Origin: an uncultured bacterium
GTDB lineage: Bacteria; Omnitrophota; Gorgyraeia; Zapsychrales; Aceulaceae
Length of the DNA: 64,000 nt
Assembly (NCBI GenBank): GCA_937930175.1
Contig: CALGLP010000006.1
Location: forward strand, 65,749-129,748
Direction: 5' to 3'
The notes under the pieces: generated by a model
Seen by the model: only the letters and a program-made list of their open reading frames with translations
Told to the model about the DNA's origin: nothing
Database searches by the model: none
Part shown: positions 4,897-51,918 of the stretch, piece by piece
How the letters are laid out: each line of letters begins with the position of its first letter
Position numbering within the stretch: the stretch's first letter is position 1
Program-made: the position numbers and the translations under genes

Positions 4897-6087
4897 ATGT
4901 CCATAAATAAAACTCCAATGATTAAGATGAAGTTGATGCGGCGTAATTGTGAATGCTGCAACAGTAATGATATGGAGTTAGTTTGGTCAAGCCAGAGCGT
5001 GGTTAGGCGCGCTACGGCAACTTGGTTGTTTTCTGTTCGGGTGGTTGTTTGTCGTCAATGCGGATTCTGTTTTGCATCTCCAAGTCCGGACCCTAAAGAG
5101 TTAAACCGTTATTATGCTGACGGTCTTTCTGGTTGCAAAAGCATAGGGTTGCCTTATTCTATTGAGAGCCGAATTCCCGTGCTCTCACGTCATTGTTCTC
5201 CGTCGGGGATATTTGTTGAGGTTGGCGGTGATTGGTCCGATGAATTTCACAAGCGTTGCGCTGGATTATTTGGAAAAATGCTTAATGTTGAAATAGCCAA
5301 AGACGCGTCAGCCGATTATCGTAGCGTTGAAGAACTCCTTCCTGGATCTGTTGACGTATTGGCGCATTATGATGTCTTAGAGCATATTTCTGATATCAAG
5401 AAGTTTTTTCATGCTTGCCGCCGAGCGTTAAAAACGCATGGTATTATGGTCTGTGAAGTGCCAGATGTCCGGCTCTATCCTCGCAATCTTTTACTTTTGG
5501 AATTTGAACATGTTAATCATTTCTCCGCCACAACGCTAGCTACCATAGCTCAGGCATGCGGGTTTAAGTTAATAGAATTAGGCCATATTTGCAGCCGTCC
5601 CTATGGATTTGTTTCGGTCTTTCGAAAGACTCAGCCCTTGGAAGGTTTTTATCCTCCCATGCCATTTGAGTATCTAGATACACTTGCTTGCGTAAAAGGG
5701 GGTATTGAACAAATAGAGCGCTTATTGGCATCCATTAAATTACTTCAAATTAAAATAAATAAATTAACAGCGCAAGGAAAAAAAATAACTTTATGGGGAG
5801 TAACAGAAATGGTGCGCCGATTTTTAGAAAATTATCGGCTTCCTGATGATGCAATCATAGTAGACTCAGATCCGCGGCGTAAACTGCATTTGGAAAAGGA
5901 AGGGGTTTTAGTTCAATTGCCTATGGATTGCCGCGATCATATTGCGCAAAGCGAGTTAGTGGTCATTTTTGTTCCACGCTATAAAACAGAGATACTGGAA
6001 TGGATAAAAAAAGAAGTGGGAAAATTATCTGATGCCGTGGAAGTCGTCGTTATGGGCGGCGGCCCAAATGGCGAATCATTGACATAA
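4897..6087 (+). CDS. SAM-dependent C-methyltransferase-like protein (Zn-ribbon + class I MTase + C-terminal Methyltransf_14-like domain)
   Basis: N-terminal CxCC...CxxCxxC zinc ribbon, methyltransferase core (DVLEHISD), and a C-terminal Rossmann-like domain as in TylCIII-type sugar C-methyltransferases. Confidence 0.6.
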   Translation: MSINKTPMIKMKLMRRNCECCNSNDMELVWSSQSVVRRATATWLFSVRVVVCRQCGFCFASPSPDPKELNRYYADGLSGCKSIGLPYSIESRIPVLSRHCSPSGIFVEVGGDWSDEFHKRCAGLFGKMLNVEIAKDASADYRSVEELLPGSVDVLAHYDVLEHISDIKKFFHACRRALKTHGIMVCEVPDVRLYPRNLLLLEFEHVNHFSATTLATIAQACGFKLIELGHICSRPYGFVSVFRKTQPLEGFYPPMPFEYLDTLACVKGGIEQIERLLASIKLLQIKINKLTAQGKKITLWGVTEMVRRFLENYRLPDDAIIVDSDPRRKLHLEKEGVLVQLPMDCRDHIAQSELVVIFVPRYKTEILEWIKKEVGKLSDAVEVVVMGGGPNGESLT

Positions 6088-6101
6088 GGAGATATTCTAC
6101 A

Positions 6102-6983
6102 ATGAAAAAACCTAAAAAACGTACTCTTAAAAATCGTTTGATTTCCGGATTAAACAGTTTGCGCTTTGTGGCGACGGAGCCTGTGCTTTTGCGCATGGCG
6201 CGGATGAAATATGAAAAATTATATGCTGATCCGCAGTCAACACCACTGGTTAGTGTCTGTGTTCCAACTTATAATAGGGGAAAATTGTTGATCGAGCGTG
6301 CCGTTGCGTCTGTTTTATCCCAAACATATAGTAACCTTGAGCTGATTGTCGTTGGGGATCATTGCACTGACAATACCGCTGAATTGATCTCACAAATTAA
6401 AGATCCTCGGCTTCGTTTCTACAACCTTCCTGCGCGTCAAAGAAGTTATCCGCAGACCGTGGAAAATCACTGGTTTGTTGGTGGAGCCGTTCCCGCTAAC
6501 AAAGCTATGGACATGGCCCGTGGCCAATGGTTGGCGCGCGTAGATGATGATGATACCTGGACACCCGATCATATCGAGGTATTGTTGCGATTTGCTCAGC
6601 AAAATCAGTATGAATTTGTATCGAGCGCCTATGTTGCAGAACGGTTTGGAAAACAAGTCGTAGTTCAAGGAGAAGTGATGAGCGCGCATCATCCTCAGAA
6701 TAATGCGCCTTTAGCTGAAAATGGTCCCAAAATAGGCGGAGTTCAAACCTGGCTTTATCGTTCGTATCTTCGTTTTATGAAATACAATGTTGATTGTTGG
6801 CAAAAGAGCTGGAATTGTGTGTGGGATGTTGATCTTGCGCAGCGCATATACAAAGCAGGAGTGCGCATTGGCTTCATTGATCAAGTCTTGGCACACGTGT
6901 TGCCACGTCCTGGAGAATCGACCATAGGGTTGGAGGCTTACAGGCTTACGGAAGAAGAAAAGTTAAAGCAATACAAGTTTTAA
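6102..6983 (+). CDS. glycosyltransferase family 2
   Basis: VSVCVPTYNRG...LELIVVGDHCTDNT and DDDD motif; strong AAGGAG RBS. Confidence 0.85.
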   Translation: MKKPKKRTLKNRLISGLNSLRFVATEPVLLRMARMKYEKLYADPQSTPLVSVCVPTYNRGKLLIERAVASVLSQTYSNLELIVVGDHCTDNTAELISQIKDPRLRFYNLPARQRSYPQTVENHWFVGGAVPANKAMDMARGQWLARVDDDDTWTPDHIEVLLRFAQQNQYEFVSSAYVAERFGKQVVVQGEVMSAHHPQNNAPLAENGPKIGGVQTWLYRSYLRFMKYNVDCWQKSWNCVWDVDLAQRIYKAGVRIGFIDQVLAHVLPRPGESTIGLEAYRLTEEEKLKQYKF

Positions 6984-7024
6984 ACCATTCTTTCAGTCAA
7001 TTTATTTTAACTTTGTGATAAAAT

Positions 7025-7741
7025 ATGGGGGGGTATATGGGAAAAACAAATAATGTTGTGATCGTTGGCGCATCATCAAGCATTGGAAGATCTGTTGTTG
7101 ATCAATTTCAACCATCATCAAAGCATATTATTGCATCCTATTTATCAAAACAGCATATGAAGCCTAAGGAGAACGTATCCTTTCTCAAGCTTGATTTAAG
7201 CATAGATAAAAGCATAGGAAGCTTTGTAAAGGAAGTCCACTCGGTCATGCCCCATCTTGACACTTTAATTTTTCTCGCAGGAATATTGCCAGGAAAGAAT
7301 CTTCGCGAGTATCAGCCAGAAGATATTGAGAAGGTAATGACTGTTAATTTTACTGGTCAAGCAAAAGTCATCAAAGGCTTGTTGCCCTTGCTTGATGCAT
7401 CGTCGCAGATCATCATGGTTTCGTCCATATCAGCTCAAAAGGGAAGTTATGATCCTATTTATTCAGCCTCGAAAGGAGCTATTTTATCTTTTGTAAAATC
7501 TCTTTCGTCTGGGTTGGGTGGAGTTCGTGTCAACGCCATAGCTCCTGGGTTGATCGAGGAGAGTACTATGGCAAGGGAAATGTCCGCATCAAGGAGAGAA
7601 TTCCATCGGCAACAAACGTCCAGCAAAGAATTATTGTCAATGTCAGACTTGGCCCAAGTTATTTTTGATGTCTCACAAAAACATTGGAAGCATATGAACG
7701 GCGCATGCATTGATTTAAATGGAGGACAATATGTCAGGTAA
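7025..7741 (+). CDS. SDR family oxidoreductase
   Basis: VVIVGASSSIGRS glycine-rich motif and YSASKGA catalytic motif. Confidence 0.8.
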   Translation: MGGYMGKTNNVVIVGASSSIGRSVVDQFQPSSKHIIASYLSKQHMKPKENVSFLKLDLSIDKSIGSFVKEVHSVMPHLDTLIFLAGILPGKNLREYQPEDIEKVMTVNFTGQAKVIKGLLPLLDASSQIIMVSSISAQKGSYDPIYSASKGAILSFVKSLSSGLGGVRVNAIAPGLIEESTMAREMSASRREFHRQQTSSKELLSMSDLAQVIFDVSQKHWKHMNGACIDLNGGQYVR

Positions 7742-8858
7742 TCATAAAAAAGTAGCTGTTGTCGGCGCAGGCGTTTTTGGCTGCAATGTCGCCTTAGCCA
7801 TTGCTCAGTCAGGCTACCAGGTGACGCTGTTTGAACGGTTGCCTGATATTGTTATGGGTACTACCAAGAATAATACAAATCGAGTTCATCAAGGGTTTCA
7901 TTATCCTCGCAATAGACATACGGCCATCGAATGCAGGGACAATTATAAAAGATTCGAAGTGGAATTTAAAGAGGCTTTGCTGGGGCATCATCCCAATATT
8001 TATTGTATCGCTCAAGAAAAATCATTAACAACAAAGGACGAGTTTATCAAATTTATTGATTCTGTCGGCCTTTCGTATTCCGCGATCGATTTAAAGAGTT
8101 TTCGCACTGAAATCAATGGCTGTAGTTTAGGTATTTTTTGCCAGGAGACGATTCTTGATTCAGATGTGCTGAGGCAAATTCTCCGTTTACGCATATTAAA
8201 CAATAAACAGGTGACATTGTCATGCAACGCTGATGTATCTATCATCAAGAAAATCGCAGATCATTATGTCTTGTCTTTTCGTGATGAAAAAAAGCCAAGC
8301 CAGTCCTTTGATGCTGTTGTTAATTGTTCCTATGCCAATATCAATACTCTGACCGAGCAGCTAGGACACGAAGTCCACGAGGAACAATACGAATATACGA
8401 TCGTTCCGATCATCAGTTTGGATTTGCCCCCAACATCGATCACGATCATGGACGGTCCGTTCATGACCCTTTTCCCTTATGGTAAAACAAATAAATTTTT
8501 GTTGTATCATGTAGAGTATTCTGTTCTTAAACGAGAAATTGCCAAAAAATTAAATCCTGATTGGCTTGACCCGCACAAAGCACCGTTTAGCAGCATGGAT
8601 CAAGTGAAATATTTTGATACCATGATCAAAGCCTGTAGCCAGTATGTTCCTGCTCTCGCCCATGCAACATTATGCGGATATCTTGAAGCGCCACGCATGG
8701 TCCTTCCGAAGCACGAGAAGGATGACGCGCGGCCATCCTTTATCAATGACTACGGTGAAGGGTATTTAACTGTTTTCTCGGGCAAGATCGATCGCAGCTT
8801 ATCCATCGCAGACTCTGTGTGCCTTAAAATAAAAAATTATTTTGCAAAAAAGAATTGA
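7731..8858 (+). CDS. FAD/NAD(P)-binding oxidoreductase
   Basis: KVAVVGAGVFGCNVALAIAQSGYQVTLFE dinucleotide-binding fold. GGAGGA RBS before ATG 7731; the ORF track gives 7719. Confidence 0.65.
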   Translation: MSGNHKKVAVVGAGVFGCNVALAIAQSGYQVTLFERLPDIVMGTTKNNTNRVHQGFHYPRNRHTAIECRDNYKRFEVEFKEALLGHHPNIYCIAQEKSLTTKDEFIKFIDSVGLSYSAIDLKSFRTEINGCSLGIFCQETILDSDVLRQILRLRILNNKQVTLSCNADVSIIKKIADHYVLSFRDEKKPSQSFDAVVNCSYANINTLTEQLGHEVHEEQYEYTIVPIISLDLPPTSITIMDGPFMTLFPYGKTNKFLLYHVEYSVLKREIAKKLNPDWLDPHKAPFSSMDQVKYFDTMIKACSQYVPALAHATLCGYLEAPRMVLPKHEKDDARPSFINDYGEGYLTVFSGKIDRSLSIADSVCLKIKNYFAKKN

Positions 8859-41534: not shown

Positions 41535-42329
41535 TTACTTAGATCTAAACTTTGAAGATCCCATCAAATCTTTGTTAATAATAGAAACAATTTCAGCAGA
41601 AATTGAAACCGCGATTTCTTGCGGAGACAGAGCTCCAATATCCAATCCTATGGGCATTTTGACAGCCTTAATCAGGCTATCTGGGATCCGTAAGCTTTGC
41701 AATTTTCTGACAAATTCTTGCTTTTTCGATTGGCTGCAAATAATACCAATATAGCCAGCTTTGGACTTGATGATCTTTTTGAGGCACTGGAAATCCGTAT
41801 CATGGCTGGCGGTAATCAGCACCATTAATGTGTTCTGGTCTACGGCAATTGTTGACAAGCCCTTGGTAAAGCTATGGCAAATGACATGATCGGCATGCGG
41901 AAACCTTCTTTTGTTGGCAAATTCTTTACGGTTATCCAGGACCGTGACCTTAAATCCAAGGGTTTTTCCTATGATGGATAAGGGCAAGCCAATATGGCCG
42001 CCACCGCAGATAACAAGGTGTTTCTGGGCCAAAAGAGGCTCAATAAAGACCTTTATTTGGCCACCGCAGAGGAATCCATCTTTTTTAGAATAGCTTAAGG
42101 GGACAAGGCTATATTTGCGGGTTTTCATGGCTTTGAGGCATTCTTTACGTGTTTTTTCCTCATTAAGCCCCCCTCCTACAGTCCCAAAACAGGTTCCATC
42201 GCTAAAAACAACCATTTTAGCGCCGATTTTCTGCGGAGTGCCTTTCATGGATTGAACAACCGTGGCAAGAGCGCACGGTTGGCCATTTTCAAGCGATTTC
42301 ATGGCTTCAAGAAGGACTTTTTCCATCAT
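41535..42329 (-). CDS. xdhC: XdhC/CoxI family molybdoenzyme maturation (MoCo insertion) protein
   Basis: N-terminal XdhC_CoxI domain (PCALATVV...GTVGGG) and a C-terminal Rossmann-like XdhC_C domain. Confidence 0.8.
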   Translation of the reverse strand: MMEKVLLEAMKSLENGQPCALATVVQSMKGTPQKIGAKMVVFSDGTCFGTVGGGLNEEKTRKECLKAMKTRKYSLVPLSYSKKDGFLCGGQIKVFIEPLLAQKHLVICGGGHIGLPLSIIGKTLGFKVTVLDNRKEFANKRRFPHADHVICHSFTKGLSTIAVDQNTLMVLITASHDTDFQCLKKIIKSKAGYIGIICSQSKKQEFVRKLQSLRIPDSLIKAVKMPIGLDIGALSPQEIAVSISAEIVSIINKDLMGSSKFRSK

Positions 42330-42343
42330 AAGAAAGCGATGTT

Positions 42344-42913
42344 TTATTCCTGCTTCACAGAAGCTTTAATGATCTTCTGGACTTCTGTTGGCCTGTCACC
42401 AGGTCCTTTGGCGCAATTTTCAATTCTTTCAACCACATCATAGCCCTTGATGACTTCGCCAAAGATGGTATGTTTCATGTTAAGCCACGGAGTGGGGATC
42501 GTTGTAATGAAAAATTGGCTTCCATTGGTGTTGGGCCCAGCATTAGCCATGGCCAAAAGGCCTTTGCGGTCAAAAATCAAGGATGGTGTGACTTCATCTT
42601 CAAAGGATTTTCCCCAAAGACTTTCTCCGCCGCGGCCAGTACCGGTTGGGTCGCCGCCTTGGATCATGAAGTTTTTAATGACGCGGTGGAAAATCAGGCC
42701 ATCATAATATCCTTTTTTGATAAGCCCGAGCATGTTTTCACAGGTTTTGGGTGCGGCAGCGGGAAAAAGCTCGATTTCAATGATGCCTTGATTTGTTTCA
42801 AAGACAATAATGGGCTTGGATGCTTTAGTGGCGTCTTGCGCAAACGCTTTTCCAGGATTGACGCTGCAAAGAAAAAACACAGCAGCAAGTAAAATTATTT
42901 TTTCTACGACCAT
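42344..42913 (-). CDS. cyclophilin-type peptidyl-prolyl cis-trans isomerase, signal peptide
   Basis: [15 protein letters not shown]...[15 protein letters not shown] cyclophilin core; N-terminal signal sequence. Confidence 0.9.
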
Positions 42914-42979: not shown

Positions 42980-43375
42980 TTAGGTTTCTTGCGAGGATGG
43001 TTTGTTTGTCTCTGGTGCTTGTTTGTCGACGCTTTTTAAATCTTGGGTTTCTGGTTTTGGTGCATCGGGTGTTTTGAGTTTTTGTTCAAAATCTTCTGCA
43101 GATTGCGCAAGGCTTATTTTGACATCGTCAACAGGCTTAATGACGGGTTCTTCAACTTTTTTTGGTTTTTCTTCATTGAGATTAAAACGATTGAGAAATG
43201 GCGACGATGGCGCTGTTTTAGGTGTTTCGTGGGGCGTATCATCGGGATTTTCATCAATTTCCAGGCTGTTTAAGAGATCCACCGGCGAAGGCTTGCTGTT
43301 TTTGCTTTCGTTTAATAAAATAACGACCACGGCAATAATGCCAACTGTCAGAATTCCAAGATAGATGATAATCAC
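42980..43375 (-). CDS. small membrane-anchored protein with Pro/Lys/Glu-rich disordered tail
   Basis: One TM (IIIYLGILTVGIIAVVVILL) then low-complexity PKPET-rich sequence. GTG start at 43375 with AAAGGAGG RBS is preferred over the ORF-track start 43423. Confidence 0.5.
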   Translation of the reverse strand: MIIIYLGILTVGIIAVVVILLNESKNSKPSPVDLLNSLEIDENPDDTPHETPKTAPSSPFLNRFNLNEEKPKKVEEPVIKPVDDVKISLAQSAEDFEQKLKTPDAPKPETQDLKSVDKQAPETNKPSSQET

Positions 43376-43544
43376 CAAAACCTCCTTTGCATGACCAAAC
43401 AATAACCAAACATCAAGAAACAATGATCAAGCGAAAGTAATTAATAGTAAAGATTTTTTATTTATGATGTATTAGAATTTTTTTTATTTTGTATCTTGTA
43501 TCTTGGTTATTGGAAATTGCTCCTATTTTCTATATAATACTTTT

Positions 43545-44132
43545 ATGATTTCATGTCTCTTGCTTTGCGCAGGACAAAGTTCACGTTTTGGATCGCCGAA
43601 AGCGCTAGCACTCATTCAGGGCCAAACGGTTATCAGCCGTTTGCAGCAGATGTTACTTGATAGCTGCGTTGATGAAATCATTATTGTCACCGGAGCGCAT
43701 GCGCAAGAAATCACGCCCTATCTATTAAACCACAAAAAGATAAAGCATGTCTATAATAAAAATTATATTTTAGGGCAAACCTCATCGTTTCAGGCCGGTC
43801 TGGATGAGGTTTGCCCCCAAGCTCAAGGCCTCATGCTGTTACCTGTTGATTATCCTCTTGTCACGACGCCCACCATCAATCTCCTCGTCGACAAATTCAT
43901 CCAAGACCCGCTAAAAATTGTCATTCCCACATACAATGGCCAAAAAGGCCACCCACCCATCTTCCCTGTTGTACTAAAAAATGAATTTTTATCTCTGGAT
44001 TCTAAGGAAGGACTCAACGTTGTCCAGCGCCGGCATAAGGAAATAATTGTTTGCTGGCCGGTCACTGACCCTGGCGTGAGCCAAAGTTTTAACACGCTAG
44101 AGGAATTTAAGAGACTAGAAAACTCAAATTGA
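43545..44132 (+). CDS. mocA: molybdenum cofactor cytidylyltransferase (MobA-like NTP transferase, MocA-type)
   Basis: N-terminus MISCLLLCAGQSSRFGSPKAL (LAAGxSxRxG motif). Adjacent to XdhC and the xanthine-dehydrogenase-family genes. TATAAT at 43533-43538 immediately upstream. Confidence 0.7.
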   Translation: MISCLLLCAGQSSRFGSPKALALIQGQTVISRLQQMLLDSCVDEIIIVTGAHAQEITPYLLNHKKIKHVYNKNYILGQTSSFQAGLDEVCPQAQGLMLLPVDYPLVTTPTINLLVDKFIQDPLKIVIPTYNGQKGHPPIFPVVLKNEFLSLDSKEGLNVVQRRHKEIIVCWPVTDPGVSQSFNTLEEFKRLENSN

Positions 44133-44249
44133 TTTTGTACTCATTCTTGAGTGCAACTGTACTCAAGAAGGGATTATGTTCTTTGCGCCCACTTTCCCAC
44201 TTGACACCCAGTCGAGGGCATGGTATTCTTTAGACACAGGAGGGTAAAG

Positions 44250-44591
44250 ATGAAAATTGTCAAGAATTCGGATCACGGAAATCATGTTGTCAAGGTACAA
44301 GAAAAATTTATGGCTGTTGATACGCGGCCTCTTGACGCAAAACATCGCATTACGCTAGGCGGAAGGTTGCAGAAACTCATTGCGCGCAAGATGAAGGTCG
44401 ATGCGTATCAGGTTTTTGTTGGCCAAGACGGAGATATTCTTCTACGGCCTGCGGTATCCGTTTCGAGCCGCGAGGCGTGGATTTATCAGAATCCTCGGAT
44501 TATTAGTAAAGTCCGCAACGGCCTTAAGGAGGCCAGCGAAGGCCAGATGGAAAAAGTTAGTGATTTAGAAAAGTTTATCAATGACCTATGA
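44250..44591 (+). CDS. putative antitoxin, AbrB/MazE (swapped-hairpin) type
   Basis: RITLGGRLQKLIARKMKVDAYQVFVGQDGDILLRP resembles SpoVT/AbrB/MazE DNA-binding cores. AGGAGGG RBS before ATG 44250. Stop overlaps the next start (ATGA). Confidence 0.5.
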   Translation: MKIVKNSDHGNHVVKVQEKFMAVDTRPLDAKHRITLGGRLQKLIARKMKVDAYQVFVGQDGDILLRPAVSVSSREAWIYQNPRIISKVRNGLKEASEGQMEKVSDLEKFINDL

Positions 44592-44884
44592 GTTTTTTGT
44601 TGAGTTTTACTCCGAGCGCGAAGCAGAGCCTGAAAAACCTCAAAGACAATGCCCATTTGGAAAAGAATTTTAAGGCCGTAGTTAAGGCCTTAAAATATCT
44701 TGCAGAAAACCCGCGCCACCCCAGCTTGCAAACCCACCAGTATCATTCCCTCTCCGGCCCCAGCGGTGAAAAGATTTTTGAGGCTTATGCCCAGCAAGAC
44801 ACGCCGGCTGCCTATCGTATCTTTTTTTATTACGGAAGCACGCGTTACGAAATAGTTGTTTTTGCGATTACTCCGCATCCTTAA
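44588..44884 (+). CDS. RelE/ParE-superfamily toxin-like protein
   Basis: 98 aa. C-terminal AYRIFFYYGSTRYEIVVFAITPH resembles the RelE/ParE beta-sheet core (YRxxYxxx...IxIxxIxH). Translationally coupled to the upstream small gene. Confidence 0.5.
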   Translation: MSFLLSFTPSAKQSLKNLKDNAHLEKNFKAVVKALKYLAENPRHPSLQTHQYHSLSGPSGEKIFEAYAQQDTPAAYRIFFYYGSTRYEIVVFAITPHP

Positions 44885-45076: not shown

Positions 45077-45718
45077 CTATTTAGTGCATTGATAGTTTGG
45101 GTCGTCAAGTTCGCAGGGAAATGAATTGTCTGTATGAATATCATTACAGACAGGGTAATCTCTGATTCCGTGATAATCAGTGCTTCCAACATCAACACAT
45201 TTTGAATTAGAAGCCCAAGGATCAATATATAGACTCTCAGGACTGCCGGATGATGTTATTTTAAATTGATAATCGATTCTCCACATCTGTTCACAGCCAG
45301 CTGGTTCTTCGTTGACACAGCGAAAGGCAAAGCAGTAAATGGTATCTTTCTGTCTGCGACAGCGAAAGCGCACGTCGCCTCCATTGTCCCATGCTTGTCC
45401 AATCCCCATGTCAAAACGTGACCCAAGATCAGCAGTTGATCCAACGATTGACGAGGAGTTCCAGCAGACATCTCCTCCTCCCGGACAGTTAGTGGTGAAA
45501 TATTCTTCATCTTTATAGCTAGCGCACTGCGTTGGCAGCATAGAACATGCAAGTGTTTGCAATCGAGTGACAGCTTGGGCAAGATTATCGCCTTCACCCT
45601 CAACAGAAGGAACACTTTCACTTTCTGCGTTTTGGACATTAAAAATGAAAAAAGTTAAAACAAGAATGAAAAGAAAGAAAAATCTTAATTTTTGGAAATT
45701 ATTCTTTTGAGATCTCAT
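45077..45718 (-). CDS. secreted Cys-rich protein (12 Cys), unknown function
   Basis: Own AGGAGA RBS 6 nt before ATG (minus-strand 45718). Signal peptide MRSQKNNFQKLRFFFLFILVLTFFIFNVQNA. Mature part is rich in C, G, D and N. In frame with the upstream gene, with no stop codon between them. Confidence 0.6.
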   Translation of the reverse strand: MRSQKNNFQKLRFFFLFILVLTFFIFNVQNAESESVPSVEGEGDNLAQAVTRLQTLACSMLPTQCASYKDEEYFTTNCPGGGDVCWNSSSIVGSTADLGSRFDMGIGQAWDNGGDVRFRCRRQKDTIYCFAFRCVNEEPAGCEQMWRIDYQFKITSSGSPESLYIDPWASNSKCVDVGSTDYHGIRDYPVCNDIHTDNSFPCELDDPNYQCTK

Positions 45719-48040
45719 TTTTTTCTCCTGATCGTTTTTTATTTTAAGTGCTTTTAAAACTTTCTCCGGCGTGATAGGAAGGTCTTTGATGCGCACGCCG
45801 ACGGCGTCTTCGATGGCGTTGGCGATGGCGGCCGCGGTAGGCAAAAGCGCTGCCTCACCCATGCCCTTGGCGCCAAAGGGGCCTTGTGGGTCATTGGTCT
45901 CGATCAAGATTGATTCAACTGGACAGGCACTGATCGAGCGCGCCAAGCGGTAGTTGGCAAAATTGGGGTTGACCACGCGCCCATCTTTAAACTGAAGATT
46001 TTCCCAAAGCGTGTACCCGATTCCCATAAAAAGTGAGCCTTCGATCTGGCCTTTGACCGATTGCGGGTTGATGGCGCGACCCACATCATGGGCATCCCAC
46101 ATTTTCAAGACCTTGACGTGACCGGTTTCGGTATTGACCTCGACCTCGGCTATTTGCGCTTCAAAACTGTAACTTCCTGAGACATTGCCCTCCCCTGTTC
46201 TAAAATCAACCGGCGTTGTCTTGGGGTTATAGCTCCCCCGGCCAATAATTTGTGTTCCGTAGTTAAAGGAATAGCAAAGCTCTACGGCTTTATCAAAGGT
46301 CATGACAACAGAGTTTGTTTGGGTGTTGATGACTTGTTCAGCTTGGATATCCAAGATGTTCACATCTAAATTTTTCTCATGGGCCACAATGTCAAGAATC
46401 TGACGCTTGGCATCAGCGGCCGCGAGCTTGGTGGCATTTCCAGAAATAAAGGTCACGCGGCTGGCAAAGCTTCCGGTGTCAAAGGGTGTGATGGCCGTAT
46501 CCGCAGCTGTAATGCGAATGCGATTGTAGCTTATGCCAAGCTCTTGGGCGGCGATCTGTGAAAGAACGGTATTTGAGCCTTGTCCAGTATCCGCAGCGCC
46601 TGTTAGGACATAGACCGAGGCATCCTCCTCGACCTTGATCACGGTGCCAGCGGATTCGTGGGATTTGTACATCTTTGAACCCATGACATCCGCGGCAATG
46701 CCGATGCCAAGCCCGCGCCTAACATGTTTTTGTTTGCCGTGTCTTTGTTTCCACTGACAGCTTTCCGCGGCTTTCTCAATGCACTCTTTGAGGCCATTAG
46801 AGGAGAGGATCATTTTGTTGACGGTGACCATGTTGGGCTCAGTAATATTTTTAAGGCGAAAGGCAACAGGATCCATGCCGATGCCTTGGGCGAGCAAGTC
46901 GATATGCGATTCCACAGCAAAGCCGGATTGCACGCCTCCAAAGCCTCTGATCGCGCCGCTAATAGGATTGTTGGTATAGACCCGATAGCCTGTAATTTTT
47001 AAGTTTTGAATTTTGTAAACCATCATGATGCGCATCATGGATGCGGCCAAGACCGTTGGCCCATAGCTGCAATAGGCGCCTCCGTCGGCAATGACTTCGC
47101 CAGAGATGGCCATGAGGGTCCCGTCTTTTTTGACCCCGGACTTGAGTCGGTAAATCATGGGGTGTTTGCGACGAGAAAAAGAAAACTCTTCTTCGCGGGT
47201 GTACATGATCTTGACCGGCGCACCTTTTGCTTTTTTGGACAAAAGACAAGCTGCGAAATCCATGGGGAGCATTTCAAGTTTTCCGCCAAAGCCACCGCCT
47301 ACCGCAAGTTTGATCACGCGTACATCATTGAGGTTCATATGCAAACATTTGGCAAGGGTTTCTCGGATTTTAAATGGGGCTTGGGTGGAGACCCAAAGTG
47401 TCACTTTTTGCGTATGCTCTTCCCATTGTCCGATGCAGACATGGGGCTCCAGGCATGTATGCGCAGCGGAAGGAAGATAAAACGTGTCCTCGCGCACGTA
47501 GTCAGATTCTTTGAGCGCACGCTCGACATTGCCGAAATTGGTTGGCAGGATGAGGGCGATATTGTTGCGCGCCTCATGAATTTGAGGCGCGCCAGGCTTC
47601 ATGGCTTCTAAGGCGTCAAAGACTGCAGGCAAGATTTCATAGTGGACGTCGATGAGCTTTAAAGCGCGCTCGGCTGTTTCTTCATCCACGGCCGCGACCG
47701 CAGCGATTTCATCGCCAATGTAGCGCACCTTATCCGCTTCCAGGGCTTGTTGGTCCGCGGTTTGTGGGAAAAAATATTCATTGGAACCAAACTTGACGCC
47801 TAAGGTGTCCTTGGCCGTGATAATGGCCTTGACTCCGTGGAGCTCTTCAGCTTTAGAGGTGTCAATTTTCAAGATCTTGGCATGCGCATGAGGACTGCGC
47901 AGCATTTTACCAAACAGCATTCCAGGAAGAACAAGATCCGAAACGTATTTTGTTTGGCCCGTGACAAAACCTCGGCCGTCAATGCGCGGGACATTCTTGC
48001 CAACAGGATTGAGGGATAAGGGATCGTTATTATTTTTCAT
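45719..48040 (-). CDS. xanthine dehydrogenase family molybdopterin-binding (large) subunit
   Basis: N-terminal a/b hammerhead domain (VPRIDGRGFVTGQTKYVSDL), about 770 aa of aldehyde oxidase/xanthine dehydrogenase large-subunit architecture. No in-frame stop before the downstream Cys-rich ORF. Confidence 0.85.
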
Positions 48041-48500
48041 GAGGGTTCATCTTCTCCCCTGCGTCTTTAATTGCTTCAAAAATCTTCAAGTATCCGCCGC
48101 AGCGACAAACATGGCCATCGAGTGATTTTTTGATCTCCTCAAGGCTGGGATTTGGCTTTTGATCGAGCAAAGCCTTGGCCGAAAGAATAAAGCCTGGCGC
48201 GCAAAAGCCGCACTGGACAGCGCCTTGATCTAGAAAAGCTTGCTGGATGGGGTGCAGATGTTCGCCGTCACTTAATCCTTCAATGGTTGTGATCGCGTCA
48301 CCTTCGACATCCTTGGCAAGAGTGATGCAGGAAAGAATCGCCTTGCCATTGACAAGCACGGTACATGTTCCGCATTCTGCTTCAGTGCACGCTGTTTTTG
48401 TTCCTGTGAGCCCTAGATGGTCGCGCAAAACCTCAAGCAGCGTTTCATGGCCCTGGATATCGATAGTGTATTCTTTATTATTAATATGAAAGGTTGTCAT
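48030..48500 (-). CDS. xanthine dehydrogenase family [2Fe-2S] small subunit
   Basis: Plant-type ferredoxin Cys cluster CTEAECGTCTV and second cluster CGFCAPG...CRCGGY. Confidence 0.9.
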   Translation of the reverse strand: MTTFHINNKEYTIDIQGHETLLEVLRDHLGLTGTKTACTEAECGTCTVLVNGKAILSCITLAKDVEGDAITTIEGLSDGEHLHPIQQAFLDQGAVQCGFCAPGFILSAKALLDQKPNPSLEEIKKSLDGHVCRCGGYLKIFEAIKDAGEKMNPHEK

Positions 48501-49345
48501 TGTATTTTTACCATTAATTCCTGCGCTGCGTCCTTGATGGTTGCAACGAGAATGGTTTTTTGATGCTCTGTTAATGTCCCTTCATCGATGGGCCAGACAC
48601 ATGACGCTAGGCGTTCTTGCATTGCTTTTCCTGGAGGGAGCCCTTCGAGGATTTGCTCACATTTTTTTTCGCGCTTGGGAAAGAATGTTGCGCATCCAAT
48701 CACAACGTGGACATCGGTCAAGGCGTTTTCTTGGGTGTGCGCGCTTAGGCAAACCGTTAAAAGTGGAATGTCCACATCAGAACATTTGGGGATGCGACGG
48801 TAAACCGCGATGGTCTTTTCTTTGGGCTCGATCGACACTGCGGTTAAGATCCCTGCACATTTGGCGTTTTTAGACAGGAAATCATCGATTGCTACTGTTG
48901 TCTTTTTTTTATCAGGAAGACCAAAATGCAGTTTTGCGTCAAGTGCCAAAAGGCCGGTGTTAAATTCTGTCCACGTGTGTCGACTGGCAATATTGCCTCC
49001 GATGGTGGCCATGTTGCGGATTTGCGTTGTCGCGATGTTTTGCGCGATGGCAACAAGCACGGGACAGCTTTGGGCGAGTTCCTGCGATGAAAGGATCTCA
49101 GCGCACGTTGTCATGGCGCCGATGCTAATGCTGTGATGGTCCACGCGGATGCCTTTCAGTTCTTTGATCTTTTTAAGGCTGATCAGGTGCGCGGGTGTCT
49201 TGAGCCCTCTTTTCTTTAAAGTTTTGAGGGTATTGATGACAAAGGTCCCTCCTGCAATAAGTTTAGCATCAGGAAGCGAGGTTAAAAGGTCGCTTGCCTC
49301 GTTTAGAGTTTTTGGTTGATGATAGGAAAAAGGATTTAAGAGCAT
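48497..49345 (-). CDS. xanthine dehydrogenase family FAD-binding (medium) subunit
   Basis: FAD_binding_5-type domain (KLIAGGTFVI...IRNMATIGGNIA) and CO-dehydrogenase flavoprotein C-terminal region. Confidence 0.8.
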   Translation of the reverse strand: MLLNPFSYHQPKTLNEASDLLTSLPDAKLIAGGTFVINTLKTLKKRGLKTPAHLISLKKIKELKGIRVDHHSISIGAMTTCAEILSSQELAQSCPVLVAIAQNIATTQIRNMATIGGNIASRHTWTEFNTGLLALDAKLHFGLPDKKKTTVAIDDFLSKNAKCAGILTAVSIEPKEKTIAVYRRIPKCSDVDIPLLTVCLSAHTQENALTDVHVVIGCATFFPKREKKCEQILEGLPPGKAMQERLASCVWPIDEGTLTEHQKTILVATIKDAAQELMVKIQ

Positions 49346-49390: not shown

Positions 49391-51232
49391 TTAATTTGCA
49401 ATCTTGTTTTTTGCTGTCAGCTTTAAGGCCTCATCCACCACAACGCCATCCCAGCCATGGCGGATGAGGTCTTGACGCAGGTCATCCGCGGTCTTGCCTG
49501 CCCTATTTTGGGGGTCGGCCAGAAAATATTTTAGGATATTAAGGTTGAAAATCTGGATCTTTCCAAGAATGACGCCGTGTGTTTTTTCAATATCAGGCCT
49601 ATTGGCCACAAAAGAAATTAGGCCTAAAAGAAGAGGAAGCCCCAGGACCAGAAGGCAGGTGTAAAAATCAAAAGCTTGAGCTTTACCTAGAAGAAATCCT
49701 GCGCAACCCCAGAAGGCATCAAAAAGAAAATGTCCCACGATGACAGGAATAATGCCGTAGCGAAGATAGAAAAAAGAAAGTAAGAGTCCTAAGCATGCGA
49801 CTTCAAGGCCACGAAACCACGCTGGAAAAATTGGATAATGTGTGTGTCCAAATCCCCAGACGATGGATGTCAGGAAGCAGGCGATGAAAACATTCTTAAG
49901 TATTTTTTCTCCCCAGCTGATACCAAAAAGGCGAAAGAAGATTTCTTCGGAGACGCCGGCGCGAAAGCTGATGGCCAGGACGGTTAAGAATGGCCAAAGG
50001 GATGAGGAGGCTTGAGCCACTTGAAAGCGTTCGGTCCAGACGTGGCAATAGGTGCGCCCAATATGGAAAAGAAGGGATTGAAGCCCTAGCATCATCATGG
50101 CAATAAAATATCCTAGAACAATGAGGCCTGTCACTTTACGGGAGCGAAAGGTTGATTGGATGTAGCTGACGAAGCCTTGGCCTTTATGTTTTAATTCGCT
50201 AGTTAAGGATTCCCCTGCAATGCCAGGCAAGATGATCGCGATGGCCGAAAATGTTCCTGCGGCCAAGAGCCCAAGGCTCATTTCGCTAAAAAAGACGCTT
50301 AGAGTTGATGTTGTTGGGTAATCAAAAAGAATATCAGGAATATTATTGATGTAAAATAAAATAATCATAATAAAAAGAATCAGCGCGAGAAGAATATAAA
50401 ATTTTTTAGATATTTGCATAATCAAATGATGGCGTTTGATCACAACCAAGTACGTTGCCGCCATGATCAGGCCATAGTAGAAAACAAGAAAGATGCCTGT
50501 TAAGATGCGTCCTGATTGCGTTGATCTTTCGATGGAGCGGTTAAATTCATCAGGGATGTCCAGGGATGCCGCATCAAAGGAAAGAATATCCTGGCCAGAG
50601 ACCTTGGCCCGAATGAGGAGCTTGGCGGTTCCAGCATTGGATTTTTCGCTCCAGGGGATGCTGACATTATTATGCTGCCAGCTAAAGGAATGATCAGTCC
50701 TGTTGTCATATTTCTTTGTTGTTTTTTCTTTGGGCATGTAGTCGTCAAATCGGACTGAAAAGGCTTGGGTTAAAAATGTTTTTGCTTGGTGATAGGCGTC
50801 GTCTAGCGGCAGCTCTTCTCGGGCCGCTGTTTCTTCCAGGATATGTCGGTAGGAAACAATTTTTCCATCTGAGGTGTCAACGACGACAACGTATTCTTCC
50901 TTCTCCCCTTCTTGAAAGAAACGGATCACCCAAAGGAAGAGATTAAGTTTGTATTCTTTAAGAAAGGCGATTTCGCCTTGAAACCCTAAGGTTTTTTGAA
51001 GGTAGCGATCTGCGCTGTCGTTAGTCTGTAGGATGATCGCATAACGGTATTCTTGAGGGGTGATGCCTTGAGAGGATAGATAGTCTTGGGCTATTTTAAG
51101 CGCTTGCGTCTTGCCAATAGACAGATCAACAAAAGAAAATTCAGGGTATCCCAGGCGCAACCAAAGGATAAAAGCGATAACGCTTAAGGCAAGATACACA
51201 ATCCACGTTTTTTTGGTTAGAGGCATTTGCAA
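49391..51232 (-). CDS. CPBP family intramembrane metalloprotease (CAAX protease-like) with large N-terminal extracytoplasmic domain
   Basis: C-terminal motifs SEEIFFRLFG (EExxxR), FGHTHY (FxxxH) and HFLFD (HxxxD) in a polytopic region. Confidence 0.75.
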   Translation of the reverse strand: MQMPLTKKTWIVYLALSVIAFILWLRLGYPEFSFVDLSIGKTQALKIAQDYLSSQGITPQEYRYAIILQTNDSADRYLQKTLGFQGEIAFLKEYKLNLFLWVIRFFQEGEKEEYVVVVDTSDGKIVSYRHILEETAAREELPLDDAYHQAKTFLTQAFSVRFDDYMPKEKTTKKYDNRTDHSFSWQHNNVSIPWSEKSNAGTAKLLIRAKVSGQDILSFDAASLDIPDEFNRSIERSTQSGRILTGIFLVFYYGLIMAATYLVVIKRHHLIMQISKKFYILLALILFIMIILFYINNIPDILFDYPTTSTLSVFFSEMSLGLLAAGTFSAIAIILPGIAGESLTSELKHKGQGFVSYIQSTFRSRKVTGLIVLGYFIAMMMLGLQSLLFHIGRTYCHVWTERFQVAQASSSLWPFLTVLAISFRAGVSEEIFFRLFGISWGEKILKNVFIACFLTSIVWGFGHTHYPIFPAWFRGLEVACLGLLLSFFYLRYGIIPVIVGHFLFDAFWGCAGFLLGKAQAFDFYTCLLVLGLPLLLGLISFVANRPDIEKTHGVILGKIQIFNLNILKYFLADPQNRAGKTADDLRQDLIRHGWDGVVVDEALKLTAKNKIAN

Positions 51233-51252: not shown

Positions 51253-51918
51253 TTAAAGCAGTTGAATGACTTCGGCTGGAAGTCGCCGGAGTTCTTGGTT
51301 CCCCAAAATCTTAATGGACCAGCGTAATAACTCAAGCTTTTGTTTAAGCCGTTCATCGTCCTGAGCGATCGTGCTGAGTTTCTTTCGGGAGAGAAAAAAC
51401 ATTTTACGTAAGGTATTAAAAACAATACGCGCTTCACGGCTTCGGTTTTGGCCCTTTTTAAGAATGTTGTTGATGTATGTATAGGTGAGCTCGTTGACAA
51501 TTTTGTTGTAGTGGTCAAGCCGTTGTAGGAGAAAGGGAACCATGGATTCAAAATATTTATAGCGATCCATGATACATAGTGTATGCCGTATTTCGATCTC
51601 GACGTAAATGGAGTTTGTAAGCGCTGATCGCCTTAGAAGGGCTTTTTCGATCAAGATTTTTTCTCTGGAGAAAACAATTTCACTGTATTTTCTTTTGAAA
51701 ACATTGATCGCGGCCGCGGTGATGTAGGGTGACAAATTGTCATCGTTGATCATAGCGATGAGAACATCTTTGGATTCGTTTTCATATTGTTTGGCGTACC
51801 CTTCCAGAAGTTTCTTATCGTCAAAGATCGGAGAATCATTTTGAGCGGATACCAAGCGCGGAAAAAGGAAAGGATACGCTAGCGATAGGATAAGAAATAA
51901 GACCGCAAAACGTTTCAT
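51253..51918 (-). CDS. hypothetical secreted protein
   Basis: Signal peptide MKRFAVLFLILSLAYPFLFPRLVSA; no recognisable domain. Confidence 0.5.
   Translation of the reverse strand: MKRFAVLFLILSLAYPFLFPRLVSAQNDSPIFDDKKLLEGYAKQYENESKDVLIAMINDDNLSPYITAAAINVFKRKYSEIVFSREKILIEKALLRRSALTNSIYVEIEIRHTLCIMDRYKYFESMVPFLLQRLDHYNKIVNELTYTYINNILKKGQNRSREARIVFNTLRKMFFLSRKKLSTIAQDDERLKQKLELLRWSIKILGNQELRRLPAEVIQLL

Follow-up and report, generated by a model that had tools for sequence, protein, structure and literature searches.

A probable stop loss joins a xanthine dehydrogenase-family molybdenum subunit to a putative Cys-rich secretory precursor in one Omnitrophota population

A single reading frame for two proteins

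We analysed a 64,000-nucleotide stretch of DNA from an uncultured bacterium of the Omnitrophota (assembly GCA_937930175.1, contig CALGLP010000006.1, positions 65,749 to 129,748), here called the window, in which a molybdoenzyme subunit and a Cys-rich protein are encoded by one open reading frame (ORF). On the minus strand the translation stays open for 987 codons (45077..48040) with no internal stop, which bears out the in-frame join described in an earlier note on this DNA. The ORF starts with a 772-residue molybdenum cofactor-binding (Mo) subunit of the xanthine dehydrogenase (XDH) family, passes through two lysines, K773 and K774, and continues into a Cys-rich protein of 213 residues that begins at M775 (M775-R-S-Q-K-N-N). 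Both halves have homologues as separate, adjacent genes in related genomes, and the fused ORF is therefore not a product of chance. Its elements, all on the minus strand, are:

45725..48040, minus: Mo-cofactor-binding (large) subunit part, codons 1-772, delimited by Pfam domains and by end-to-end alignment with the subunits of two related loci, L001 and L013
45725..45729, minus: Shine-Dalgarno (SD)-like AGGAG, 6 nucleotides (nt) upstream of the internal ATG (45718..45716), from direct reading of the sequence
45722..45724, minus: AAA codon of K773, at the site of the presumed ancestral TAA stop, from the junction alignment with relatives
45719..45721, minus: AAA codon of K774, formerly intergenic spacer on this alignment, matching the GAA between stop and ATG in L001
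45718..45724, minus: run of seven A that the stop loss would have produced, from three-frame translation of the junction
45077..45718, minus: gene of the 213-amino acid (aa) Cys-rich protein with 12 Cys, codons 775-987 plus the TAG stop, delimited by standalone homologues
45620..45718, minus: signal-peptide-like N-terminus of about 31-33 residues, from the hydrophobicity maximum, a basic n-region and a cleavage-type site

The Mo part contains the Pfam domains Ald_Xan_dh_C, MoCoBD_1 and MoCoBD_2, with 110, 267 and 242 bits against gathering cut-offs of 31, 27 and 27, and matches to NCBIfam profiles extend to the final profile positions, at about residue 766. The Cys-rich part has the equipment of a gene of its own that the earlier note had recognised, namely the AGGAG, the ATG and the signal-peptide-like N-terminus, and a purine-rich SD-like stretch is also present at the corresponding place in relatives. 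The count of 12 cysteines given there is exact, but the mature domain should be about 180 residues long rather than 190.

The junction in related genomes

Comparison with homologous operons, which had been suggested as a check, places the origin of the fusion at a single codon. The Mo part of the window aligns over its full length with the separate 771- and 772-aa Mo subunits of L001 (GCA_028693815.1) and L013 (GCA_030765185.1, the Mo subunit of which bears the name Candidatus Aceula meridiana in one source), with identities of 85% and 84%, and residue E772 pairs with the terminal residue of both. In these relatives the subunit usually ends in ...K(N/T)KNNQE followed by TAA, and the TAA of L001, L013 and L015, three other Omnitrophota loci, aligns with the AAA at 45724..45722 of the window:

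Window: CAG GAG AAA AAA ATG
L001: CAG GAA TAA GAA ATG
L013: AAG GAG TAA AA ATG
L015: GAA CAA TAA AA ATG

The Mo gene is followed by the Cys-rich gene also in L013, L015-L017 and L003/L004, with a spacing of 2-3 nt or, in L003/L004, with the two genes meeting by an ATGA overlap. In L001, the closest of these loci, the Mo gene (5682..7997) and the Cys-rich gene (from 8001) already share one frame, so that one T>A change in such an arrangement suffices to fuse them. Since relatives have two genes here, the first of them ending in a stop at the corresponding codon, we conclude that the fusion very probably arose by a TAA>AAA substitution, that is, by a real stop loss between two operon genes, one of the possibilities that the earlier note had put forward.

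The same alignment disposes of the other explanation offered there, in which a 1-nt homopolymer difference around 45740-45755 would restore a stop after ...KAL. Out-of-frame TAA triplets do lie in this A-rich stretch, within 45739-45756 (at 45756-45754, 45746-45744 and 45741-45739). However, the Mo subunit of the relatives runs seven codons further, the codon-for-codon alignment with L001 and L013 places the ancestral stop at 45724..45722, and the difference there is a T>A substitution, so the informative position is this AAA codon and not the A-run. An alternative genetic code was also considered and rejected, as TAA, TGA and TAG end 32, 16 and 10 long ORFs in the window, respectively, and the codon concerned is AAA.

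We considered the 119 closest Mo-subunit clusters, in which nearly all named members are Omnitrophota. They measure 730-792 aa each, share 73-86% identity with the fused ORF over no more than 79% of its length, and none of the 119 is fused. Among them the C-terminal extension is confined to the cluster of the window itself, indicating a private event in one lineage, which is therefore presumed to be recent. The rest of the operon has intact genes of normal length (FAD-binding subunit, 282 aa; iron–sulfur (FeS) subunit, 156 aa; XdhC, 264 aa; and the MobA-like gene), and thus it is not decaying. Overall, our reading, to which we give a probability of roughly three in four, is that the window records a real and probably recent stop loss in one Omnitrophota population near Candidatus Aceula, and that it is likely tolerated.

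A different origin of two separate products could be sought in recoding, by +1 ribosomal (or transcriptional) slippage on the seven A into the TGA of the ATGA, which would yield a normal Mo subunit and allow reinitiation at the ATG. The +1 frame reads AGG AGA AAA AAA TGA, with the TGA overlapping the ATG, the -1 frame meets a TAA five codons further, and the second AAA has the SD-like AGGAG 3 nt before it. This layout recalls the +1 site of prfB, and runs of Lys AAA codons are prone to shifting. However, the 0 frame offers neither a slow codon nor a stop at which the ribosome would pause, there is no significant or stable RNA structure at the junction (z = +0.96) that could stimulate slippage, and the site is not conserved, since the relatives have a plain stop. 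Runs of seven A or T are also common, with 40 in the 64 kb, in addition to 16 runs of eight (56 in all); the longest A or T run is eight, and the GC content of the window is 42.8%. Of the features of programmed frameshifts of the prfB or dnaX type, the junction thus has the A7 and the AGGAG, with stimulators and conservation absent. We found no positive evidence for the unusual termination or reinitiation that had been raised, and consider recoding hardly probable at all. A search of the junction for promoter-like and terminator-like sites found neither.

Reproducibility of the junction across assemblies

Four more assemblies, which draw on at least three data sets, carry the identical junction CAGGAGAAAAAAATGAG, and the exact 987-aa product has been recorded from other assemblies too. 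The four assemblies are:

L006: NCBI metagenome-assembled genome (MAG) GCA_036722365.1, 100% identical to the window
L007: Logan single-run assembly of SRR3330212, 100% identical to the window
L008: Logan single-run assembly of SRR3330211, 100% identical to the window
L009: ENA SPAdes assembly ERZ724082, same junction with a distinct local haplotype

Because the same junction recurs in this way, errors of the assembler or random errors in reads are unlikely to lie behind it, and the change is a substitution, not the assembly indel proposed earlier. The contig of L009 keeps the junction next to a haplotype of its own: at the equivalent of about 45806-45811 of the window it has GAAGAC>TACAAC, three clustered substitutions that lead to E744Y/D745N in the Mo subunit and that are its sole differences from the window across 5.4 kb. 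Tyr at position 744 is also found in L013 and L015, and the L009 variant is either a multi-nucleotide variant or a small recombination patch inside the population. The initial 47 nt of the L009 contig do not align with the window.

It could still be argued that the true genome has a stop at the junction and two ordinary genes, and that a sequencing or assembly artefact removed it. The altered base does begin a run of seven A, near-identical assemblies could share a library or a systematic error, and the coverage of the ERZ724082 contig, taken from its name, is only about 6.5x. Yet different assemblers agree on the same bases in the four further assemblies, the difference from the relatives is a substitution and not a change in homopolymer length, and the haplotype of L009 comes with the same junction. 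Altogether, we consider an artefact very improbable. Our literature search found no paper mentioning the run or assembly accessions.

The putative internal signal sequence and a possible fate of the fused product

The segment that follows residue 774, MRSQKNNFQKLR-FFFLFILVLTFFIF-NVQNAESES, includes the 19 consecutive residues of highest hydrophobicity anywhere in the 987-aa ORF. It has an n-region with five Lys/Arg (two Arg, three Lys), a 14-residue core rich in Phe and Leu, and candidate cleavage sites NA↓ES and AES↓ES, assigned by inspection according to the -3/-1 rule. Comparable N-termini are present in all homologues of the Cys-rich protein. The hydrophobicity maximum and the charge distribution together point to a signal peptide, as judged by inspection. 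After residue 772 the segment is flanked by a strongly basic N-side, KIKNDQEKKMRSQKNNFQKLR, and an acidic C-side, and therefore insertion with the N-terminus in and the C-terminus out (N-in/C-out) would be expected.

These features allow a scenario to be drawn for the fate of the two products, which we put forward tentatively. In the ancestor the two genes would have been tightly coupled, with a stop, 2-3 nt and then the ATG, in the same frame as now in L001. After the loss of the stop, some ribosomes would start at the retained AGGAG/ATG and make the normal 213-aa precursor, and those arriving from the Mo gene would make the 987-aa chain. In this chain the internal signal sequence would insert N-in/C-out via Sec, leaving the Mo part in the cytoplasm and exporting the Cys-rich part, and signal peptidase I could cut at about NA↓ES or AES↓ES, which would set the usual mature Cys-rich domain free outside the cell. 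The Mo subunit, on the cytoplasmic side, would be left with a hydrophobic C-terminal tail of about 35 residues and would perhaps be membrane-associated. Leader peptidase reportedly cleaves internal signal sequences in E. coli, in work with Lep model proteins. Internal initiation combined with Sec processing of the fused precursor is a possible account that falls somewhat short of an even chance. On this account both mature products would be nearly normal, and the mutation would therefore be tolerated; it is likely neutral or mildly harmful, and not a designed architecture. That the 987-aa chain is the main route to both products, as a membrane-spanning polyprotein with the Mo hydroxylase tethered to the cytoplasmic face, seems unlikely.

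A stronger proposal would be that the fusion is adaptive, a natural polyprotein in which the internal signal sequence tethers the Mo enzyme to the membrane and guarantees a fixed 1:1 output of the Cys-rich domain. Both halves are indeed intact and conserved, the Cys-rich one down to each of its 12 Cys and its core motif, the charge distribution suits N-in/C-out insertion, and at least five species-level lineages show tight coupling of the Cys-rich gene to the Mo gene. On the other hand, the fusion is known from a single population and from none of the 119 closest orthologues, the Cys-rich family has members away from XDH genes, meaning that the two proteins are not obligate partners, and the SD and ATG of the second gene are kept, as a recent event would predict. 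In our view, an adaptive fusion is quite improbable.

Several points also weigh against the reading of a real and tolerated stop loss. The five junction-bearing sequences are 99.94-100% identical and so represent one population, and they may come from a common site or project, in which case they would be independent as runs and assemblers, not as lineages. The reading is built on assembled sequence, and the calls of the signal peptide and of its cleavage were made by inspection only. A hydrophobic core of about 14 residues is short for a stable membrane anchor, and there is no sign of evolutionary maintenance of the fusion. The 215-residue C-terminal extension may or may not be compatible with assembly of the Mo enzyme.

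Relation to known fusions and exported molybdoenzymes

The stop loss in the window resembles other read-through fusions, in that tightly spaced separate genes are joined by one substitution and the downstream start signals are kept. It differs from them in its downstream partner, which is a secretory precursor, so that a signal sequence lies mid-way in a protein whose first part is a cytoplasmic cofactor-containing subunit. The fusion thus adds one more case to a known kind of event, unusual in placing a secretory precursor on a cytoplasmic molybdoenzyme subunit, and we know of no described member of the XDH family with a C-terminal signal peptide plus an exported domain.

A point of comparison is PaoABC of E. 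coli, a periplasmic aldehyde oxidoreductase in which the whole enzyme is described as periplasmic (PMC3958847). The likeness is that of an XDH-family enzyme with an extracytoplasmic connection, and the difference is that the putative export signal in the window, of the Sec type, belongs to the appended Cys-rich domain alone. The FeS subunit of the window (156 aa) is matched by [2Fe-2S] profiles from residue 3-6, so that no N-terminal signal peptide would fit, and the large subunit scores 327 with the PaoC profile, for which the cut-off is 1180.

For annotation it follows that two joined proteins, and not a new domain architecture of the XDH family, make up the 987-aa 'molybdopterin oxidoreductase' of this MAG and its twins. 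The locus also offers a natural test case for how a cell responds to a cytoplasmic, cofactor-loaded subunit joined to a secretory precursor.

The Cys-rich protein and its family

Homologues of the Cys-rich protein include P0001 (216 aa, 59% identity, from a Candidatus Omnitrophica MAG), P0002 (175 aa), P0003 (222 aa), P0008 and P0009, all encoded by standalone genes. A profile search of 1.84 billion cluster representatives extended the family to 33 representatives of 78-238 aa, all of them standalone, a search of 90% clusters returned six proteins only, and scans of genome contigs and of metagenome contigs each recovered only the known Ga0172381 locus. The earlier note had seen no recognisable family: this holds as regards Pfam and NCBIfam, where neither the window protein nor any of 29 family members has a match, but a small homologous family does exist. 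Its core reads CWNSSSIVGS...GDVRFRCR.Q...YCFA(F/Y)RC...EPAGC(K/E)Q.WR, with four or five Cys invariant or nearly so across the family. The window protein has no CxxC or CxxCH motif, and for this reason it looks like a disulfide-stabilised extracytoplasmic protein rather than one with an obvious metal or haem site. The metal-binding or adhesin-like role suggested in the earlier note is at most a candidate.

The AlphaFold2 model, built from a 29-sequence alignment (mean predicted local distance difference test score 80, predicted template modelling score 0.74), has a helix at 5-25 (the signal helix) and a low-confidence linker, after which a long helix (38-66) leads into a domain that is mainly beta. 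No structural match to the protein was found, and the only matches of the family profile in the PDB were three N-terminal helices of pilins (E = 0.5-0.9). With type IV pilins and pseudopilins such as PulG and Geobacter PilA-N, the family shares a hydrophobic helix followed by a ...L..L..A...Y....YP pattern and, in the predicted model, the order of a long helix and then a beta-sheet. Unlike them, it has no G/F-x-x-x-E prepilin motif and is not a member. A pilin or pseudopilin identity was rejected also because hhalign gave a probability of 3.7% against PulG (using a PulG sequence the N-terminus of which agrees with the PDB match), Foldseek returned no pilin, and the 29 members had no T2SSG or N_methyl Pfam match; the resemblance is kept as a lead only. 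All named family members are Omnitrophota, and the Cys-rich domain may be a fold without a solved or viral relative, restricted to this phylum.

Not all members of the family accompany an XDH-family operon, and an obligate partnership with the Mo enzyme can be discarded, as those in L012, L018 and L019 sit away from XDH genes. In L012, a distant relative (458-2972), a gene for a CPBP/Rce1-like membrane protein (599 aa) is directly followed by P0003, with no XDH genes between them, L019 (107-1254) has the tandem paralogues P0021 (196 aa) and P0011 (175 aa) with no Mo-subunit gene upstream, and the family gene of L018 has ferredoxin-like and ArsB/CitMHS-type neighbours. The linkage to XDH genes is thus limited to one subclade. 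The adjacency in L012 suggests that the partner of the Cys-rich protein may be the CPBP protease instead of the Mo enzyme, and we see the two ties as equally plausible. The fusion draws attention to this small, uncharacterised family of putatively secreted, disulfide-rich proteins, coupled in some Omnitrophota to a phylum-wide Mo enzyme operon.

The molybdoenzyme operon and its neighbourhood

The other genes around the fused ORF that bear on the Mo enzyme are:

49391..51232, minus: 613-aa membrane protein with a CPBP/Rce1-like protease domain (Pfam Rce1-like), which opens the conserved block
48497..49345, minus: FAD-binding medium subunit, 282 aa (Pfam FAD_binding_5)
48030..48500, minus: [2Fe-2S] small subunit, 156 aa, sharing 11 nt with the Mo gene (Pfam Fer2, Fer2_2)
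43503..44132, plus: MobA/MocA-like nucleotidyltransferase for Mo-cofactor maturation, convergent with the operon (Pfam NTP_transf_3)
41535..42329, minus: XdhC-type Mo-cofactor insertion chaperone (Pfam XdhC_CoxI, XdhC_C)

The domains of the large subunit, together with the adjacent FeS, FAD and XdhC-type genes, assign the enzyme to the XDH/aldehyde oxidase family. The heterotrimeric enzymes XdhABC, PucCDE and HcrABC (4-hydroxybenzoyl-CoA reductase) consist of the same trio of FAD, 2x[2Fe-2S] and Mo-cofactor subunits, with XdhC and MobA/MocA-like genes nearby. The large subunit scores under every NCBIfam equivalog cut-off, including those of XdhA (NF043082, 624.9 bits for a cut-off of 780) and of 4-hydroxybenzoyl-CoA reductase alpha (TIGR03194, 754.1 bits for 994.55), and the FAD subunit is matched by the beta profile of the latter enzyme (TIGR03195) at residues 3-121 only, which is the first third of the profile, with 72 bits for a cut-off of 404. 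With these scores and the partial beta match no substrate can be assigned, and 'xanthine dehydrogenase' is a family label only. Source labels for this enzyme vary, being either 4-hydroxybenzoyl-CoA reductase alpha or xanthine dehydrogenase, and its conservation is Omnitrophota-wide, with more than 100 clusters at 73-86% identity. Among the papers listed in a literature search, none linked Omnitrophota to this enzyme.

The gene order in L001 is valyl-tRNA synthetase (ValRS), QRPTase, a 221-aa protein, CPBP/Rce1-like, FAD, FeS, the 771-aa Mo subunit, Cys-rich and a convergent MobA-like gene, and the order in the window is the same. The CPBP/Rce1-like gene holds the same position in L001, L013 and L015, and in the relatives the MobA-like gene conservedly comes directly after the Cys-rich gene.

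In the window lineage, which includes L006-L009, a cassette of two genes coding for 123 and 98 aa (44220-44884, plus strand, 4-nt overlap) lies between the Cys-rich and MobA-like genes. The cassette is found only in this lineage, and L001, L013, L015 and L003 have the MobA-like gene directly after the Cys-rich gene. The second protein weakly matches a ParE toxin (E = 0.004, below the cut-off), and the cassette looks like a toxin–antitoxin insertion. No tRNA gene and no Rfam family at the gathering threshold was found in the 64-kb window.

In the conserved block, the genes of the cytoplasmic Mo enzyme are interspersed with others of extracytoplasmic type, at 42344-42913, 51253-51918 and 42980-43423 (all minus strand). 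They comprise a cyclophilin and a 221-aa protein, each with a signal-peptide-like N-terminus and the latter without a Pfam match, and a small protein rich in Pro, Glu and Lys that has a single hydrophobic helix.

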